Notes: generated by a model not told the origin, from the letters alone. Shown: positions 30,969-38,915, counted from the first letter of the stretch. The stretch is 64,000 nucleotides of DNA from Pseudanabaena sp. (GCA_003249035.1 QBMK01000015.1:22833-86832), one strand, 5' to 3'. Program-made: numbers and translations.

Positions 30969-31397
30969 AGCTTAGATTTTGATGTTTCTATTATTATTTT
31001 ATGCTTTCTGATTTCTAAATCAAAAATAGTACCCAAATTTTTTAGAATTACTGGTTCAAAAGCAATATCTATTCAAGTTTGTGAATCATGAAAAGATAGT
31101 ATTTCTTGGCAAAGACTATAAAAAATTCCTATCTCCTCGTCGGGGGATTCTGGCACAAAAAAATATTCTGTCAAGGGTTTATAGCAATACAGGAGTTAGC
31201 CAGACTCAAAAGATAAGTGGTAGCGCTTAGCGTCGCCACTTATCTTTTGGGTTTTACTTCCTGAGCCAAGCTCACATTGCTATATTTTTTGCCGTATTCG
31301 GCAAGACTCAGGTATAGGTTATAAAACTGAGATATTGTTGTGTCCCATGCGATCGCGCATACAGATAAAATTGGGAGACTCTCTAGCAAACAACCCT

Positions 31398-31919
31398 ATG
31401 GATTTTAAAAGCATTATTCGTGATATTCCTGATTTTCCGCAGCAAGGCATCATGTTTCGAGATATTACGCCTTTGTTAGCACATCCTCATGGACTAACAG
31501 CAGTTATCGAAGGCTTTAAAACAAAATTCGCTGATACGGATATTGGGGAGATCGATAGCATTGTTGGAATTGAGTCCAGAGGATTTATCCTTGGTGCAGC
31601 GTTAGCAATGGCTTTAGGTTGTAGCTTTGTGCCAGTTCGTAAACCTAAAAAGTTACCGTCCGCAGTATTTCGGGTTGAATATTCTCTGGAATATGGAACC
31701 GATACTTTAGAAATGCATCAAGATGCACTTGCAGCAGGAGAGAGAGTGATGATCGTCGATGATGTGATTGCTACGGGAGGAACTGCGGCTGCTACTGCAA
31801 AGCTAATTAAACAAGCTGGGGCAGAATTGCTTGGTTATGGATTTTTGATTGAGCTGGATTTTCTCAATGGCAGAAAAGCATTACCTGAAGTACCGATTGT
31901 TTCCTTAGTAAATTATTAG
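31398..31919 (+). CDS. apt: Adenine phosphoribosyltransferase
   Basis: Start [27 protein letters not shown] at the ATG at 31398 (the track ORF starts 63 nt upstream). PRPP-binding motif [16 protein letters not shown]. Confidence 0.9.
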
Positions 31920-32176: not shown

Positions 32177-32590
32177 ATGGATATCATTACACCGCTTGTG
32201 AGTTTTCTGGCTCCTTATTTGCCTGCGCTGTTGGGGTTCGGGAAGAAAGCCTTGGACAAAGGGGCTGAGAAGTTGGGAGAAAAAGGGGCTGAAGAAATTT
32301 TTAAGAAACTATCGCCTCATTTGGAGTCTAAACCCAATGCAAAGGAGGCGGTGGTTTATGTTGCGGAAAATCCTGATGATGCGGATGGGCTGGGGCAGTT
32401 GCGGCTGCAATTAAAGAAAATTCTGGAGTCACCTGAAAATGCAGTTTTGAAGGCGGAAATTGCAAAGATTTTAGAGGGAGAAGAAGCAACGGCAAAGGGC
32501 AAATTCAATGTTAATGCTCAGGGTGCTAATATTGGGGTGATCGGCGATCGCGCCAATATTGACAATATGAATTTTGGGAGCAAACCCTAA
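32177..32590 (+). CDS. Small helical protein with a hydrophobic N-terminal helix and a C-terminal G/N/Q-rich motif (candidate effector)
   Basis: 137 aa. MDIITPLVSFLAPYLPALLGFG is followed by charged helices. The last 29 aa, KFNVNAQGANIGVIGDRANIDNMNFGSKP, match the N-terminus of the next ORF. Confidence 0.6.
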   Translation: MDIITPLVSFLAPYLPALLGFGKKALDKGAEKLGEKGAEEIFKKLSPHLESKPNAKEAVVYVAENPDDADGLGQLRLQLKKILESPENAVLKAEIAKILEGEEATAKGKFNVNAQGANIGVIGDRANIDNMNFGSKP

Positions 32591-32649
32591 ATTTGAACCT
32601 TTTTGTTGTGTTCGTTCTTTTTGGTCATTAAGGACTGATCGCTAAACCA

Positions 32650-33936
32650 ATGAGTGAATCTCAATACAGCATTGATGCTAGAGAGGCGAATATTGGGGTA
32701 ATTGGCAATGATGCCCAAATCACCCAAAATATTTATCTGCAATCGGTTGATTATCAAAGATTGGTGGAGCGGATTAGGGAAACTCAGGAAAGTTTGGAAG
32801 ATGTGCCAGCGTCTAAACCAGAAAGGCGTTTGAAACTTGCTGAAAAACTACAAGATCTGAAGGAGCAGTTAGAAGAGTTTAAGGGTAACGTTTTTAAGTT
32901 ATATGAAACTTTTACTAAGATTGAGATTAATACGGAACGGTTGAGGCAGGCTAAGGCGCATTTTGACAAGGGGGAATTTCGAGAGGCGGATGCGGTACTG
33001 AAGGCGGAGGAGATGACCGAGGATCTCGATAAGCTGATCGAGAGGGAGCGGCAACTGGATCGCCAAAGGGACAATGTGAGGGGCAGTAGGGAACAGATCG
33101 CGAATGAGTTTTTGATTAAGGCGCGTCTATGGGCAACTTTTTATGACCAACCGAATCGTTTAGAGCAAACTTGCGAATATTTTGAAGAGTCTTTACGGGC
33201 GGCGCGGACATGCGAAAACTTGCTTGAATATGCATATTTTTTAAGAGAGCATTTTAAGCTCAATCAAGCGGAACAACTATGTCAAGAAGCTTTACAGATT
33301 TATCGTGAATTGGCAAAGCAGAATCCTGTTATTTTTCTGCCATACGTGGCAGGTACGCTGAACAATTTGGCGGTTTTGCATAGTAATACCAATGCAATGG
33401 CGATCGCTCTCTCGGAATATACGGAGGCTCTAGAGATCAGACGCGAATTGGCAAAGCAGAATCCTGCTACTTTTCTGCCAGATGTGGCAATGACGCTGAA
33501 CAATTTGGCGGTTTTGCATCGGAATACCAATGAAATGGCGATCGCTCTCTCGGAATATACGGAGGCTCTAGAGATCAGACGCGAATTGGCAAAGCAGAAT
33601 CCTGCTACTTTTCTGCCAGATGTGGCAATGACGCTGAACAATTTGGCGATTTTGCATAGTGATACCAATGAAACTACTTTAGCAATATCGGAATATCAAG
33701 AGGCTTTGCAGATTTGTCAAGATTTTGCGAAAAAGAGTCCTGCTGCTTTTCAGCCAAAGGTGGATCTCGTACTTGAAAATATTGCTGATTTGCAAAATGC
33801 TACTGATGAAAGGAATATCTCTGGGTTTAAGAATGGACAAGCCCCACCCACAAAGCAGAGAAGTAGGTCAATCAAATCCCGTTCTTGGCTCAAAAATATT
33901 TGCCGTGGCATCAAAAATTTGTTTAAACGGAGTTAA
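32650..33936 (+). CDS. Coiled-coil / TPR-repeat protein with an N-terminal G/N/Q-rich motif (candidate receptor)
   Basis: 428 aa. N-terminus is QYSIDAREANIGVIGNDAQITQNIYLQ, followed by about 150 aa of coiled coil and then a TPR (TPR_10/12-like) array with three 46-aa units. No Walker A motif is visible. Confidence 0.8.
   Translation: MSESQYSIDAREANIGVIGNDAQITQNIYLQSVDYQRLVERIRETQESLEDVPASKPERRLKLAEKLQDLKEQLEEFKGNVFKLYETFTKIEINTERLRQAKAHFDKGEFREADAVLKAEEMTEDLDKLIERERQLDRQRDNVRGSREQIANEFLIKARLWATFYDQPNRLEQTCEYFEESLRAARTCENLLEYAYFLREHFKLNQAEQLCQEALQIYRELAKQNPVIFLPYVAGTLNNLAVLHSNTNAMAIALSEYTEALEIRRELAKQNPATFLPDVAMTLNNLAVLHRNTNEMAIALSEYTEALEIRRELAKQNPATFLPDVAMTLNNLAILHSDTNETTLAISEYQEALQICQDFAKKSPAAFQPKVDLVLENIADLQNATDERNISGFKNGQAPPTKQRSRSIKSRSWLKNICRGIKNLFKRS
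33396..33648 (+). repeat. Tandem 138-bp coding repeats with a perfect 115-nt duplicated block
   Basis: 33396-33510 is identical to 33534-33648. Unit anchors GAATTGGCAAAGCAGAATCCTG occur at 33307, 33445 and 33583. Confidence 0.9.
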
Positions 33937-34238: not shown

Positions 34239-36523
34239 CTAGACTAGGCGATCGCCATAATTAATTGCAAATATTGCAACTGTCGTAATCAAAATTAAAG
34301 GATAGATAATCAAAGAAGCAATATTAAAATACTTAAAGGCTTTTTTATGTCCATCTCTCTCTAACTTCGTCCCAATCACCGTCACGATGATGGGGAATAG
34401 ACACAGACAGAAAAAGACATAAAACACATATTCCATCGCCACTGTATAGCCAACTTCGGGTAATTGATTGTTAAAGGATAGTAACAACACAATCCCTGAA
34501 AGTAATGCTGACGCAGGAGCCATCGTGCGCGGCACAAACATTGTATAGGGGAAAAACAGACAGCAATAGACTAAGAGCGAAAGCAAAATCAGCGGTAAAA
34601 TATTCTTAGACAAAAACACTAAGGTTCTGCGCTTAACAGTCATCCGAATGCTTAACCCCGGATATTCAACCTGAACATTTGATTGAAATAAATCAGGATC
34701 GCCTTGAGTAGAGGTGCTGCGCGATGAGTCTTGAAAATAGGTGATATCTTTGAAAGTCCAAAGTTGCAGTCCTTGAAATGGTTTGCGCTCCAAATCTTTA
34801 TCTCTGGGCAATCTTAAGCCAACGGTATCGATCGCATAGACCAATCGATCTGTTGATAGATTCGGATTGTCAAACCGCAAATTTAATTTTTGGGAATCAA
34901 AGGGATAATCGCGAAAATCGAAGGCATTGCGAAATTCACCACGAACCCTAAAGAGTCGGTAGTTTAAGCCATCGACCACCTGCGCTTTGATTGGATCTTT
35001 GCTATCAAATACAGGAGCTGTTGGATTAACACTATTAACAACCGCATCGGGAAATTGAATTTTAGTGGGGTCATCATTACCGCTATAGCGGAACCAAACA
35101 TAAAAATCGGCGGTAAAAGTTGACTTATCAATTCGATTTAGTTTGTTGATGTCCATTGCTGCATAAACCACCCGCTGTCGCCAGAAATATTGATCGCCCG
35201 CTCGAACAATGCTCCCGGCTTCCAGCTCTTTTGGCAAATTCAGTCGTTCAGGATTAGTGATCTGTGTGAATTGCTGTGAGGCGGAGATAAGTTTGTGGTT
35301 TTGAAATTGAGCGAGGCGCACTGGCTGATCGCTATTGCGATCGCTGTTGAAATAAAGCAAACCCGTTAAACCTCTAAGCCCAACTTTGCGATTATTCAGC
35401 TTAGCGAGAGCCTCGCGTACCTGCTCGCGATCGTCTGTTAGACTTGCTGGGGTTAATCTAGGATTAGCCTTACGAATGGCATCAACTGCCACGATCGCTG
35501 CCTCATAAAACTTTGCTCCTAAATATGATGGAGTCTTGTTATAAGCGTTTTGATAAGCAGACAGAAAGTCTTGCGCATCTGCTCCAGCACTATCAAACAA
35601 AATTGGTAATGGCACATACATGCCATCAGTAAAGAATCCTATGCTTTTCTTCTCTTCATCATATTTATCAAACCGCTTCGCAAAAGATTCCCTTCCCAGA
35701 GCTTGCTCACCTAAAATGCTATTTTTTAGCCCCTTTTGTTTGAGCGCCACCAAGAAGTCTTCGGCAAGGTCTTCCTTGGATATGGTTAAAAACAAAATCC
35801 CCGCTTCAGGTTCAGCAGCTATCTCGTTGACGATCTGCTGTATTGATGATTTACGATTGGCTGGATCAGAATCAACCGCCCAAATACGCTGAATCTTGCC
35901 ATTACCATTGGCTTCAAAGGCAGATTTAATTACTTCCGATTGGGTCTGTTGATTTTTGCTGGATTTGTCATAAATTACATTAGCGGTTTTGACTTTTAGG
36001 ACTTGCTGAGCATATATTGACAAGGTTTTCGCTAGATCTGGATTGGTATAAATAATCCGAAAATAGTAAGGGCGATCGATAGTAACTTTAGGATTATTCG
36101 CCGTACCCGTAATTGCTGGTAATTTGCGTTCTTGATAAATGCTACCTGCCGCGATAGAAGCATCTGAAGAGCGATGCCCAAAACTACGAGCGCATCACTT
36201 TTAGAAATTTCATTAGCAACTTGAGTTGCTCCCTCAGCATTGCCCTTGTCATCAAAAACATTTAGCTTAAGCTGACGACCATTGATACCCCCTTCTCGAT
36301 TAGTCGCATCAATATATAGCTTGATGCTATCAACTATTTCTTGCCCACCACTAGCGACATCTCCGCTTATAGGTGCAGCGACGGCGATCGCAATCGCGTT
36401 ATCATTATTTGCTCTTAAACTTTGTGGATATAATCCGCCGAGTGATACAACGATCAAAATTGTGGTCAGAGCGATCACGCAAAATCTTACAACTGTTTTA
36501 CCCATGTACCCTACAGCCGTCAT
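34239..36523 (-). pseudogene. Periplasmic-binding-protein (LivK/PBP1-like) domain fused to a prokaryotic pentameric ligand-gated ion channel; frame broken by a 1-nt frameshift near 36177-36194
   Basis: ORF 36032-36523 encodes a TM/signal segment plus the start of a PBP1 domain up to ...SDALVVLG, then leaves the frame. The frame of ORF 34239-36023 (TTG start) reads on upstream as GHRSSDASIAAGSIYQERKLPAITGTANNPKVTIDRPYYFRIIYTNPDLAKT- back to a stop at 36195-36197. One base therefore appears to be missing around GTAGTTTTGGGCATCGC. The C-terminal half has the Cys-loop-equivalent motif FRDYPFDSQKLNLRF (YPFDSQ = 34890-34907) and four TM helices with a short M3-M4 loop. Confidence 0.8.
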
Positions 36524-36884: not shown

Positions 36885-38195
36885 ATGGATTTAGATACCA
36901 TTCTTAACAAGCGTTATCGCATTCGTCAAACTATTAGCATCAAACAAGTTAGTGCGATCGCATTATCAGTTTATCTAGCCGAAAATCTAGAGATGCCGAT
37001 TACACCCAAGCCTTGGTGCGTGATTTATTTCTGGCAAGTATTAGGAGAAGATGTTCTAGATCGAGAAGCGATCGCCGCAAAGCTTTATGAAATTGGACAG
37101 AACTACACTCTAGCTCCTAAAGTACAAGCTTTTTTTACAGAAGAAGACAATTGCTATCTGGTACGTGAATACCTAGAGGGTTATGAATATCTAGAAGAAT
37201 TTAGCCGAATTGTTAATGCTCTTTCTACTCCTGAGGCAAAAAAGAATTCAGAAATTTCTACAGTTAAAGCCTTGCCAAACTCCCGAGCATGGGCAAACTC
37301 TCTTGCAAAATTACCCATCAAGATTAGTCGTCGTCAGTTAATTATTAGCACTAGTTGCGCGATCGCAGGTTTTACCTTGGCGATATTTCTCGAAAACCTC
37401 AAGCCTCAACCCTCCCCGATTATCATTGCTGAACCTCAGCCAGTTCCTGAACCGCCAAGCGATCCGATTAAGCGAGGGGATAAAGCCTTTCGTGATGATT
37501 TAGGCAATGGGATCTATATGGAGATGGTGCGGATTGAATCGGGAAAATTTGCGCTAGGTTCGCCGCCCAATGAAATTGGTAGACGTGACAATGAATCACC
37601 CATATCTGAGGTAAATGTGCCCGCTTTTTATATAGCAAAATTTGCAGTTACCCAAGAGCAATGGGTGGCGATTATGGGAAGTAATCCCGCCATGTTTCGC
37701 GAAAACTTACAAGCGCCTGTGGAAAACATTTCTTGGCTTGAGACTCAAGATTTTTGTCGCAAATTAGCAACTAGATCTCAACATCTTTATCGCTTACCTA
37801 GCGAATCAGAATGGGAATATGCATGTCGAGCTGGCACAAATACGGCTTACCATTTTGGCGATAGTCCATCTCAACTCGCCGATTATGCATGGTTCTCTGA
37901 CAATGCCAACAAGCGATCGCATCCTGTCGGACAGAAAGTACCAAACCCTTGGGGGCTATACGAAATGCATGGCGGTATTTGGGAATGGTGCGAAGACGTT
38001 TGGCACGATAATCTTAACGGCGCTCCTGCCGATGGATCGGCATGGATAAGCGATGGCTACGCCAGTCGGCGCGTTCGCAAGGGTGGCTCATGGAGTAATG
38101 AAGCCCGTTTATGTCGATCGGCAAGTCGTGAATGGCATTGGCAAAGCGATCGCTACAATGACATCGGCTTTCGCGTAGTTATTTCGGCAATGTAG
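36885..38195 (+). CDS. Membrane protein with a C-terminal FGE-sulfatase (formylglycine-generating-enzyme-like) domain and a vestigial kinase-like N-terminus
   Basis: 436 aa. One TM helix (LIISTSCAIAGFTLAIFL). FGE-type domain motifs: MVRIESGKFALGSP, WEYACRAGT, NPWGLYEMHGGIWEWCED, RKGGSW. The N-terminal ~110 aa resemble a Ser/Thr-kinase N-lobe without the G-loop or catalytic Lys. Confidence 0.8.
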   Translation: MDLDTILNKRYRIRQTISIKQVSAIALSVYLAENLEMPITPKPWCVIYFWQVLGEDVLDREAIAAKLYEIGQNYTLAPKVQAFFTEEDNCYLVREYLEGYEYLEEFSRIVNALSTPEAKKNSEISTVKALPNSRAWANSLAKLPIKISRRQLIISTSCAIAGFTLAIFLENLKPQPSPIIIAEPQPVPEPPSDPIKRGDKAFRDDLGNGIYMEMVRIESGKFALGSPPNEIGRRDNESPISEVNVPAFYIAKFAVTQEQWVAIMGSNPAMFRENLQAPVENISWLETQDFCRKLATRSQHLYRLPSESEWEYACRAGTNTAYHFGDSPSQLADYAWFSDNANKRSHPVGQKVPNPWGLYEMHGGIWEWCEDVWHDNLNGAPADGSAWISDGYASRRVRKGGSWSNEARLCRSASREWHWQSDRYNDIGFRVVISAM

Positions 38196-38357: not shown

Positions 38358-38915
38358 ATGACAGCTCAACTCCTTACGCATAAATTTACGACACAGCAAT
38401 ATCACCTCATGCATGAAGCTGGTGTTTTTGCACAGGGCGAGCGTCTCGAATTAATTGATGGAGAAATCAAAAAAATGTCGCCAATTGGCAGAAAACATGC
38501 TGCTTGTGTAAACCGTTTAGTTACAATATTTACCAAAAAATTAGGCGATCTCATTATATTGTCAGTGCAAAATCCCATTCGCTTGGCTGATAATTCAGAG
38601 CCACAGCCCGATCTTGCCATCCTCAAACTGCGTGCAGATTTTTATGAAGAGGAATTGCCAACACCTTCAGATATCTTGTTGATTGTCGAAGTTGTTGATA
38701 GCACGATCGCCTATGATCGCGAAGTCAAAGCACCTCTTTACGCATCGGTGGGTATTCCTGAAATGTGGTTGTTTGATGTCAATAAAAAAGCGATCGAGGG
38801 ATATTCGCAACCATCTGCATCAGGATATAAACAGTTAAATCGGTACGAAAAGAATGATAAGTTATCGATACTTGCCTTTCCTGAGGTGATGTTTACTTGG
38901 GAAGAGTTATTTTAA
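38358..38915 (+). CDS. Uma2-family (DUF820) restriction-endonuclease-fold protein
   Basis: 185 aa. Pattern YHLMHEAGV...ELIDGEI..MSP...H, PQPDLAIL, LIVEVVDS. Confidence 0.85.
   Translation: MTAQLLTHKFTTQQYHLMHEAGVFAQGERLELIDGEIKKMSPIGRKHAACVNRLVTIFTKKLGDLIILSVQNPIRLADNSEPQPDLAILKLRADFYEEELPTPSDILLIVEVVDSTIAYDREVKAPLYASVGIPEMWLFDVNKKAIEGYSQPSASGYKQLNRYEKNDKLSILAFPEVMFTWEELF

Follow-up and report, generated by a model that had tools for sequence, protein, structure and literature searches.

A probable matched-motif effector/receptor module with an NTPase-free coiled-coil/TPR receptor in Pseudanabaena

Two adjacent genes with related termini

In a 64,000-nucleotide stretch of DNA from Pseudanabaena sp. 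(GCA_003249035.1 QBMK01000015.1:22833-86832; the window), two adjacent collinear genes, here called P1 and P2, encode a small helical protein and a tetratricopeptide repeat (TPR) protein that carry related motifs, one at the C-terminus of P1 and the other at the N-terminus of P2 (Table 1). We propose that they probably constitute a matched-motif effector/receptor module of the kind known from Bell effector domains and bacterial amyloid signaling sequences (BASS), with a receptor that has dispensed with the nucleotide-binding oligomerization domain (NOD) of NOD-like receptors (NLRs). An earlier reading made from the nucleotide sequence by itself (the sequence-only reading) had described both open reading frames (ORFs) and the gap between them, and our ORF call agrees with it.

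Aligned without gaps, the two motifs are identical at 10 of 26 residues, with an unbroken ANIGVIG, and their core DNA is identical at 20 of 24 positions, which reproduces the match first reported. Searched for in a relaxed form across the six frames of the window, the motif pattern occurs at these two sites only, bearing out the claim that neither protein holds another copy. The idea of an internal repeat of a bactofilin or other beta-helix protein was rejected, as the motif occurs once per protein and is terminal. When the last 40 residues of P1 are compared with the first 40 of P2, the local BLOSUM62 score is 55, a value reached by none of 5000 shuffles (shuffle maximum 53); with the full-length proteins, 2 of 500 shuffles reach it. 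Taken alone, this match is of moderate significance; the real statistical support is provided by orthologous and paralogous pairs in other genomes. Every Pseudanabaena ortholog keeps the pair and both motifs, as do relatives at 54-58% identity; the effector-side motif, conserved among P1 orthologs, is variable among distant homologs.

P1 has zero matches in Pfam, NCBIfam and PADLOC. It has 63 homologs, which are 93-96% identical within Pseudanabaena, and an AlphaFold2 (AF2) model built with 21 homologs (mean predicted local distance difference test score, pLDDT, 70.8) places helices at residues 4-18, 31-51, 53-64, 69-83 and 86-109. The tail, residues 105-137, contains the motif and is predicted to be disordered. 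The five helices fit the earlier description of a helical domain that starts with a hydrophobic helix. Across the 21 aligned homologs L11, P13 and L15 of helix 1 are invariant and M1, L7, P16 and L18 nearly so, and all sequences except one start with MD, ME or LD. Conservation is found in the N-terminal helix (MD..L…LAP.LP.L) and a central LRLQLKK segment; the last 30 residues differ clade by clade. P1 resembles the effectors of Bell/BASS-NLR pairs in three respects: its helical domain of ~100 aa with five predicted helices, the hydrophobic nature of the first helix, and an acidic amino acid at position 2-3. A hydrophobic N-terminal helix with an early acidic residue is a feature described for Bell, HeLo and MLKL domains, and by analogy helix 1 of P1 is a candidate membrane-inserting or pore-lining helix.

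P2 matches TPR families only in Pfam (TPR_10, 2.4e-19; TPR_12, 2.8e-12), NCBIfam and PADLOC; these profile searches brought no hidden NB-ARC, NACHT or AAA domain to light, and we found in P2 no Walker A motif, alpha/beta domain or profile match to a nucleoside triphosphatase (NTPase). Its AF2 model (pLDDT 84.3) has helices throughout and zero strands, which agrees with the earlier account of a coiled-coil region followed by a TPR array, and residues 1-20 are predicted to be disordered (pLDDT 34-37). Foldseek gives as top matches the TPR domains of kinesin light chains (E 2e-7, 24-32% identity). Between motif and repeats lies a domain with the family signature …FKxNVFxLYETFTKIEINTERLxxAKAHFDxGEFREADAxLKAEEM….

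The TPR array is presumed to be the ligand-sensing part of P2. Its units (33307-33831; orthologs L007-L011, L059 and L060) are near-identical save at positions 13, 16, 23, 26, 27 and 32, and the duplication pointed out by the sequence-only reading was recovered as tandem 138-nt units. Unit number ranges from four in the window, the fewest among orthologs, up to ~10 (L059, 805 aa); the low number could be real or the repeat could have collapsed in assembly. Highly similar repeat units with few hypervariable positions and variable copy number are a trait reported for NLR sensors. Past the repeats, the basic tail conserved in Pseudanabaena orthologs is predicted, at low confidence, to form a helix at residues 409-427 and may be an amphipathic membrane-binding helix; it is absent from the wider P2 family, whose members end in a capping helix.

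Table 1. Features of the P1/P2 locus, in window coordinates
Feature	Position	Strand	Remarks
Putative effector gene P1	32177..32590	+	137 aa; helical domain and C-terminal signaling motif; ORF call
P1 N-terminal hydrophobic helix MDIITPLVSFLAPYLPALLGFG	32177..32242	+	Acidic residue at position 2; predicted helix 4-18, pLDDT ~81
Effector-side motif KFNVNAQGANIGVIGDRANIDNMNFG	32501..32578	+	P1 residues 109-134, then SKP; predicted disordered, pLDDT 40-44
P1-P2 spacer	32591..32649	+	59 nt between the two collinear genes
Putative receptor gene P2	32650..33936	+	428 aa; N-terminal motif, helical/coiled-coil domain, TPR array, basic tail; ORF call
Receptor-side motif QYSIDAREANIGVIGNDAQITQNIYL	32662..32739	+	P2 residues 5-30, after MSES
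Conserved helical (coiled-coil-like) domain, family signature	32740..33249	+	Alignment A2: 16 invariant columns
TPR array (TPR_10/TPR_12 type), 46-aa units	33250..33831	+	Pfam; kinesin-light-chain-like fold
Near-identical 138-nt tandem TPR units	33307..33673	+	Tandem Repeats Finder: 2.7 copies, 93% matches
C-terminal basic tail (…KQRSRSIKSRSWLKNICRGIKNLFKRS; RSRSIKSRSWLKNICRGIKNLFKRS)	33844..33933	+	P2 residues 399-428; conserved in Pseudanabaena orthologs

Matched partners and an NTPase-free family across genomes

Searches with P2 residues 1-200 bring together a coherent family of short TPR proteins, whose first 20-40 residues are highly variable and precede a strongly conserved helical domain (…FKENVFRLYETFTKIEINTERL..AKAHFD.GEFREADAILKAEEM…). 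Membership can be described by a YETFTKIEINTERL..AK..F..G.FREAD..L domain with TPR_10 or TPR_12 repeats after it and a short motif or an effector domain before it, and P2 has this arrangement (alignments A2 and A3). An exhaustive phmmer search with P2 residues 30-200 against 1.84 billion cluster representatives (clusters at 50% identity) returned 483 clusters at E<=1e-3 and 339 at E<=1e-10. None of the 150 top-scoring representatives shows the Walker A pattern. In 120 of them the N-terminus is extended by 16-60 aa that are rich in G, N and I and poor in L and P, and 16 have more than 100 aa ahead of the conserved domain. The longer N-terminal regions in the family comprise CHAT, caspase (Peptidase_C14), SMEK_N, EAD11 or TIR-like domains and never an NTPase; the CHAT, caspase, EAD11 and TIR-like regions indicate that the P2 chassis carries the same kinds of death and immunity domains as NLRs. 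As the NTPase-free architecture is the family norm, we rejected the notion that P2 is a decayed NLR.

A synteny scan over a single genome per GTDB species found 52 P2-type loci, from Cyanobacteria, cable bacteria (Electrothrix, Electronema), Bacteroidota, Brocadiaceae, Nitrospira, Nitrosovibrio and Anaerolineae. At 42 of the 52, the immediately upstream gene on the same strand ends with a motif that matches the N-terminus of the receptor, so the effector-C/receptor-N layout proposed for the window recurs in other genomes. Together with the window and L001 these loci give 44 pairs, in which C-terminus/N-terminus scores average 56.8 for cognate and 28.0 for non-cognate combinations, the observed sum being reached in 0 of 10000 permutations. 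Two paralogous systems within one Desulfobulbaceae metagenome-assembled genome illustrate the same specificity, with scores of 86 and 63 for own partners versus 40 and 44 for crossed ones. A motif of ~20-25 aa common to the effector C-terminus and the receptor N-terminus, in adjacent collinear genes, is thus found in the window and in the 44 pairs. The matched segment ends 0-20 residues from the effector C-terminus (at most 9 in 40 of 44) and starts at receptor residues 1-22. Its composition is enriched in G (4.0-fold), I (2.9-fold), N (2.1-fold) and V (1.6-fold) and depleted in L (0.08-fold) and P (0.16-fold); we count this as agreeing with the published BASS trend (Q, N, G, V and I enriched; K, P and L depleted) except for Q (0.96-fold) and K (1.18-fold), which deviate.

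All-vs-all clustering of the neighbors at the 52 loci gave neither a conserved third gene nor an NTPase encoded in trans; the upstream effector alone is conserved. The lack of an NTPase, first noted in P2 by the sequence-only reading, extends from P2 itself (profiles and AF2) to the 150 best family members and to the neighborhoods of the 52 loci. The proteins encoded upstream are of several kinds. P1-like helical ones occur at L007-L013, with distant forms at L042, L044 and L048 that the P1 profile still catches. Others are TIR-like/DUF4062-like proteins of ~190-240 aa that match the N-terminus of the PADLOC candidate PDC-S60, proteins of 60-82 aa consisting of one transmembrane helix and the motif (cable bacteria), and an EAD11 protein (L058). 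Eight further loci are fusions. Some of these have a TIR-like or unknown domain, then one motif and then the chassis, and others, from cable bacteria and relatives (L040:3764-6220, L045:3752-5989, L037:40-1203), join a transmembrane helix, two tandem HSG.GDN[IV]GRDK copies and the coiled-coil/TPR chassis. The latter look as if a mini-effector had been fused to a receptor with both motif copies retained, reminiscent of the two HET-s pseudo-repeats, and the tandem arrangement suggests that the copies stack on each other.

Shorter motifs occur at L015-L033 (Leptolyngbyaceae, Phormidesmis, Nodosilinea and others), where ~13 aa of the form KTYNIxKIxxARF at the C-terminal end of TIR-like/DUF4062-like proteins match KTYNIxNIxxAQF at residues 4-17 of the adjacent coiled-coil/TPR protein. 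The gap between effector and receptor genes is often 0-20 nt in other loci, or the genes overlap. Spacers in orthologous Pseudanabaena loci measure 330-423 nt (L008:3578-4000, L010:3668-3997) versus 59 nt in the window and 16 nt in L009; L008 and L010 carry an insertion between the effector and receptor genes.

The homologs of P1 tie it to NLR-associated effectors. By Pfam, proteins encoded next to P1 homologs are NACHT-HEAT (with an N-terminal EAD10 match), NACHT, NACHT-FGE-sulfatase, nSTAND1-WD40, nSTAND3 and NB-ARC-fn3 proteins, the homologs with NACHT, NB-ARC or nSTAND partners being 35-45% identical to P1 (E 1e-11 to 1e-16). A metagenome scan with a P1-family alignment gave 80 loci. The Pseudanabaena-like ones, L059 and L060, are again followed by P2-type proteins, and at most other assessable loci the downstream protein has a Walker A motif and an N-terminus that matches the effector tail, as in TASGNRSVAIGGSVSGSVIVTGD versus ATGERAVAIGGSVEDTV. 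The pairing of its homologs with NACHT, NB-ARC and nSTAND proteins through matched N-termini is in keeping with the place that the sequence-only reading had given the P1 domain.

Motif classes are likewise common to both kinds of receptor. By comparison with Table S2 of Dyrka et al. 2020, the tail of the P1 homolog P0057, …ANAHDQSTLKQVGEIKADTVNF, falls into the BASS10 class, and the motif of the coiled-coil/TPR pair L014, KAYQQNQNQGEINNADTITI, equals that of unassigned Bell/NLR pairs of Anabaenopsis and Crocosphaera in the same table. The closest likeness there to the P1/P2 motif is an unassigned pair of Arthrobacter sp. Rue61a, VVVSGGKVGIVGDHGHV / VNISGGTVGAIGDHNQV (VGIVGDHGHV / VGAIGDHNQV). 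From these three links it follows that the same effector domains and motif classes serve either an NLR or an NTPase-free coiled-coil/TPR receptor.

Two further observations concern P1-family effectors. In NACHT-HEAT partners (L062:606-4676, L090:3667-6936, L077:723-3161, L092:5053-8763) the Pfam domain EAD10 spans residues 1-80 and includes the beta motif ATGERAVAIGGSV, which is common to the partner N-terminus and the tail of the P1-like effector; EAD10 and the BASS-type motif may be two names for the same entity. A conjugative plasmid of Aulosira laxa NIES-50 (plasmid3, L139:3995-8211; BAZ78632.1/BAZ78633.1) encodes a P1-family effector 42% identical to P0057, adjoining a 1206-aa Walker-A protein with the matched motif SG..SV..GGS.S..I.TGDNN, and this pair is not in Table S2 of Dyrka et al.

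Relation to known systems, mechanism and rival explanations

HET-S/NWD2 of Podospora anserina, like other amyloid-signaling NLR pairs of fungi, combines a pore-forming helical effector with an adjacent receptor whose N-terminus templates the prion-forming C-terminal motif of the effector. P1/P2 resembles it in the layout of motifs, and all-in-one effector-receptor fusions exist as well. It differs in being bacterial, in lacking a HeLo or HET match, in a receptor without NACHT and WD40, and in the single motif copy of P1 as opposed to the two pseudo-repeats of HET-s.

The Bell/BASS-NLR systems of filamentous bacteria have in common with P1/P2 an all-helical effector of ~120-140 aa whose N-terminal helix is hydrophobic and whose second residue is acidic; adjacent collinear genes, the first ending and the second opening with a motif of ~25 aa; motifs rich in G, N, I and V and poor in L and P; and receptor repeats with high internal conservation. 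Such systems are present in Pseudanabaena and other cyanobacteria, and P1 homologs take part in NLR pairs of this sort. P2, unlike their receptors, is not built from NB-ARC or NACHT plus TPR/WD and has a coiled-coil-like helical domain instead, and its motif is not one of BASS1-10. The survey of Bell/BASS-NLR pairs by Dyrka et al. 2020 (bioRxiv 10.1101/2020.01.06.895854) screened NB-ARC/NACHT neighbors only, which is why it did not report the coiled-coil/TPR receptor class.

That known receptors of this kind are all NLRs, as the sequence-only reading held, is out of date. In the abortive-infection system Bab/Agp of E. coli ECOR25 the receptor is a TPR-GreA/B-C-PIN (TGP) protein (Ibarlosa et al. 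2024, bioRxiv 10.1101/2024.11.07.622273), an experimental precedent for a non-NLR TPR protein that triggers a Bell-type effector via amyloid templating. P1/P2 would accordingly not be the first pair of this kind with a non-NLR receptor. Both systems set a small helical effector with a C-terminal motif beside a non-NLR TPR receptor with the same motif at its N-terminus; Bab is Bell-related and its motif amyloid. P2, in contrast, has no GreA/B-C or PIN domain (Pfam) and possesses a distinct conserved coiled-coil domain, P1 has no detectable similarity to Bab/Babybell (9H9V) in a PDB profile search or by Foldseek, and P1/P2 lies in a housekeeping neighborhood instead of the defense island or prophage hotspot expected from Bab/Agp. 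We found no publication on the family of coiled-coil/TPR receptors, on the classes of motif that it carries or on its use of Bell-like, TIR-like or mini transmembrane partner effectors, our coverage of the literature being incomplete, and no full-text paper containing motif strings such as ANIGVIG or KTYNIG.

The conclusion that P1/P2 is a NOD-less variant of the Bell/BASS layout, already advanced by the sequence-only reading, thus draws on matched pairs throughout the family, on the NTPase-free nature of that family and on P1 homologs beside NLRs. For the full mechanism, including amyloid-like templating and cell death, our confidence is lower; by analogy with the systems above we lean toward a model of the following kind. 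At rest, both motifs would be disordered and the hydrophobic helix 1 of P1 sheathed by its other four helices. A ligand, perhaps a phage or other non-self protein or peptide, would bind the hypervariable TPR groove and alter the oligomeric state of P2 via the coiled-coil domain, bringing several N-terminal motifs together. The clustered motifs could then adopt a cooperative, stacked beta-arch (amyloid-like) fold that would template the C-terminal motif of P1, whereupon P1 would polymerize, free helix 1 and damage the membrane. The outcome would be cell death or abortive infection. No nucleotide switch would be involved, the coiled coil doing the oligomerizing work of the NLR NOD.

Several points count against this interpretation. 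Amyloid formation by the P1 and P2 motifs is something we infer from analogy, and a switch of oligomeric state in a receptor without a NOD is pure inference. Some motifs of the family, such as KTYNIxKIxxARF, are only ~13 aa, short for a rung of a beta-arch. Comparison with the BASS families, which the sequence-only reading had in view, gave the Arthrobacter likeness and no membership in BASS1-10, string searches of Table S2 with GVIGD, IGVIG and MNFG finding nothing. Neither sequence nor fold comparison detected a match of P1 to Bab (PDB 9H9V), HeLo or MLKL: the P1-family profile returned spurious helical matches from PDB sequences, with Bab 9H9V not among them, and a Foldseek search of PDB with the P1 model was uninformative (best E ~1.2, TM ~0.2). 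Bell folds vary widely according to the literature. Homology of P1 to the Bell domain (HMMER relatives of ONI86675.1) may nonetheless hold: Pfam and NCBIfam contain no Bell model, and P1 homologs beside NACHT or NB-ARC proteins with matched motifs, together with the BASS10-class tail of one homolog, give it indirect support. Searches of viral contigs and plasmids recovered no member of the P2 family. Finally, the neighbors of P1/P2 are housekeeping genes (6PGD, apt, periplasmic binding protein), no defense island is present, and the flanks are syntenic among other Pseudanabaena strains. This setting makes an anti-phage role less convincing than for Bab/Agp; it has no bearing on the signaling mechanism.

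The main alternative to amyloid-like templating, which we consider unlikely although it deserves attention, is a homotypic adaptor without amyloid, in which the motif would act as a tag comparable to an effector-associated domain (EAD), forming a finite beta-sheet between receptor and effector, as a heterodimer or an oligomer, that recruits the effector to an activated coiled-coil/TPR scaffold. EADs follow just this logic, one small module being present both in the core protein and in the effector of a neighboring gene (Kaur, Burroughs, Iyer and Aravind 2020, PMC7159879). EAD systems and P1/P2-type pairs have module sharing within an operon in common and overlap in their effectors (TIR, CHAT/caspase, EAD11), and EADs are enriched in multicellular prokaryotes. 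Also in favor of the adaptor are the EAD10 matches at the N-termini of NACHT-HEAT partners, beta motif included, EAD11 on the upstream partner L058 and on the fused family member P0264, and the shortest motifs. EAD systems are built on NTPases (STAND, MoxR-vWA, GAP1 GTPases) and globular EADs of ~80 aa, whereas here a tag of 13-30 aa is combined with an NTPase-free core. Against the adaptor, neither P1 nor P2 matches an EAD model in Pfam, EAD10 and EAD11 being confined to relatives and partners elsewhere, and the P1/P2 motifs, at 20-26 aa, are predicted to be disordered in the monomer. Their G/N/I/V-rich, L/P-poor composition is BASS-like, and the related classes BASS1, BASS3 and BASS11 form amyloid or prions in published experiments.

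Mimicry within the TPR groove is a further and distinctly less probable possibility. The N-terminal motif of P2 would then be an autoinhibitory pseudo-ligand with which the effector tail competes, and P2 would sequester and release P1 in the manner of an antitoxin or chaperone. In kinesin light chain, an LFP-acidic motif sits in the protein's own TPR groove and is autoinhibitory. By structure, the P2 TPR domain comes closest to these short-peptide binders, which also have a coiled coil followed by TPR units of 42-46 aa, and the gene order, with a small toxic-looking first gene, recalls toxin/antitoxin pairs. The likeness is structural only, though, and kinesin light chain has no terminal G/N-rich motif and no partner effector. 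AF2 leaves residues 1-20 of P2 undocked and disordered; the same logic of P1-type effector and motif operates with HEAT or WD40 receptors, which are not TPR proteins; very different motif classes sit on a well-conserved chassis whose hypervariable TPR positions are independent of motif class; and tandem motif copies occur within single polypeptides. As for coincidence, be it a chance heptapeptide, a leftover of local duplication or gene conversion, or a P2 that is a decayed NLR, the moderate statistics of the single pair (55 versus 53 for the best of 5000 shuffles; 2 of 500 at full length) and the low TPR number of the window copy are what one might cite for it. We give it almost no credence: the pair and motifs are conserved in all Pseudanabaena orthologs and in the relatives at 54-58%, the lack of an NTPase is typical of a family of at least 339 clusters, and matched termini recur with unrelated effectors. 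Family-wide pairing, the permutations, family size and the 0 of 150 Walker A count exclude chance or decay.

Bacterial amyloid signaling has so far been documented with NLR receptors and one TPR-GreA/B-C-PIN receptor. If the templating model for P1/P2 is correct, a large and phylogenetically broad family shows that an oligomerizing NTPase is dispensable for such signaling, and the question arises how the templating nucleus is controlled without a nucleotide switch. A minimal system of two proteins, of 137 and 428 aa, would then be at hand for dissecting ligand sensing, nucleation and effector activation. The catalog of signaling motifs would grow beyond BASS1-11, and hundreds of genes annotated only as "tetratricopeptide repeat protein" would become candidates for sensors of immunity or cell death in cyanobacteria, bloom-forming Pseudanabaena among them.

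A bolder reading is tempting, though we give it somewhat less than an even chance: P2-type proteins would be a widespread, nucleotide-independent class of immune or cell-death receptors, functionally parallel to NLRs, in which coiled-coil assembly driven by a ligand replaces the NOD ATPase and effectors are either fused or recruited via self-templating beta-arch motifs. On this wider reading, the tandem-motif single chains would be bacterial equivalents of the two-rung HET-s solenoid. Bell-like pore formers and TIR-like, CHAT/caspase, mini transmembrane and EAD11 proteins would make up the same repertoire of death effectors as that of NLRs, and the class, which numbers 339 clusters or more, would range over Cyanobacteria, cable bacteria, Bacteroidota, anammox bacteria, Nitrospira and others.

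Surroundings of the pair in the window

The P1/P2 pair is flanked by apt (31335-31919) and a gene for a periplasmic binding protein, with 6PGD farther upstream. The spacer between P1 and P2 contains no terminator-like site, and promoter and terminator scans gave nothing above chance level, the terminator-like matches being the TPR repeat itself.

Downstream, the adjoining ORFs 34239-36023 (-) and 36032-36523 (-) both match Peripla_BP_6, at profile positions 131-339 and 2-73, and look like two parts of a single gene interrupted by a frameshift or stop, whether because it is a pseudogene or through an error in sequencing; the longer ORF also encodes a multi-transmembrane region at its C-terminal end. 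The next ORF, 36885-38195 (+), encodes a 436-aa protein with a C-terminal FGE-sulfatase domain (3.4e-48) and an uncharacterized N-terminal half. FGE-sulfatase is also the C-terminal sensor part of the NACHT partner of a P1-like effector at L125, with no link between 36885-38195 and P1/P2 established. At 38358-38915 (+) lies an ordinary cyanobacterial gene for a Uma2-family putative restriction endonuclease (1.8e-32), followed by one for an ABC-transporter ATPase.

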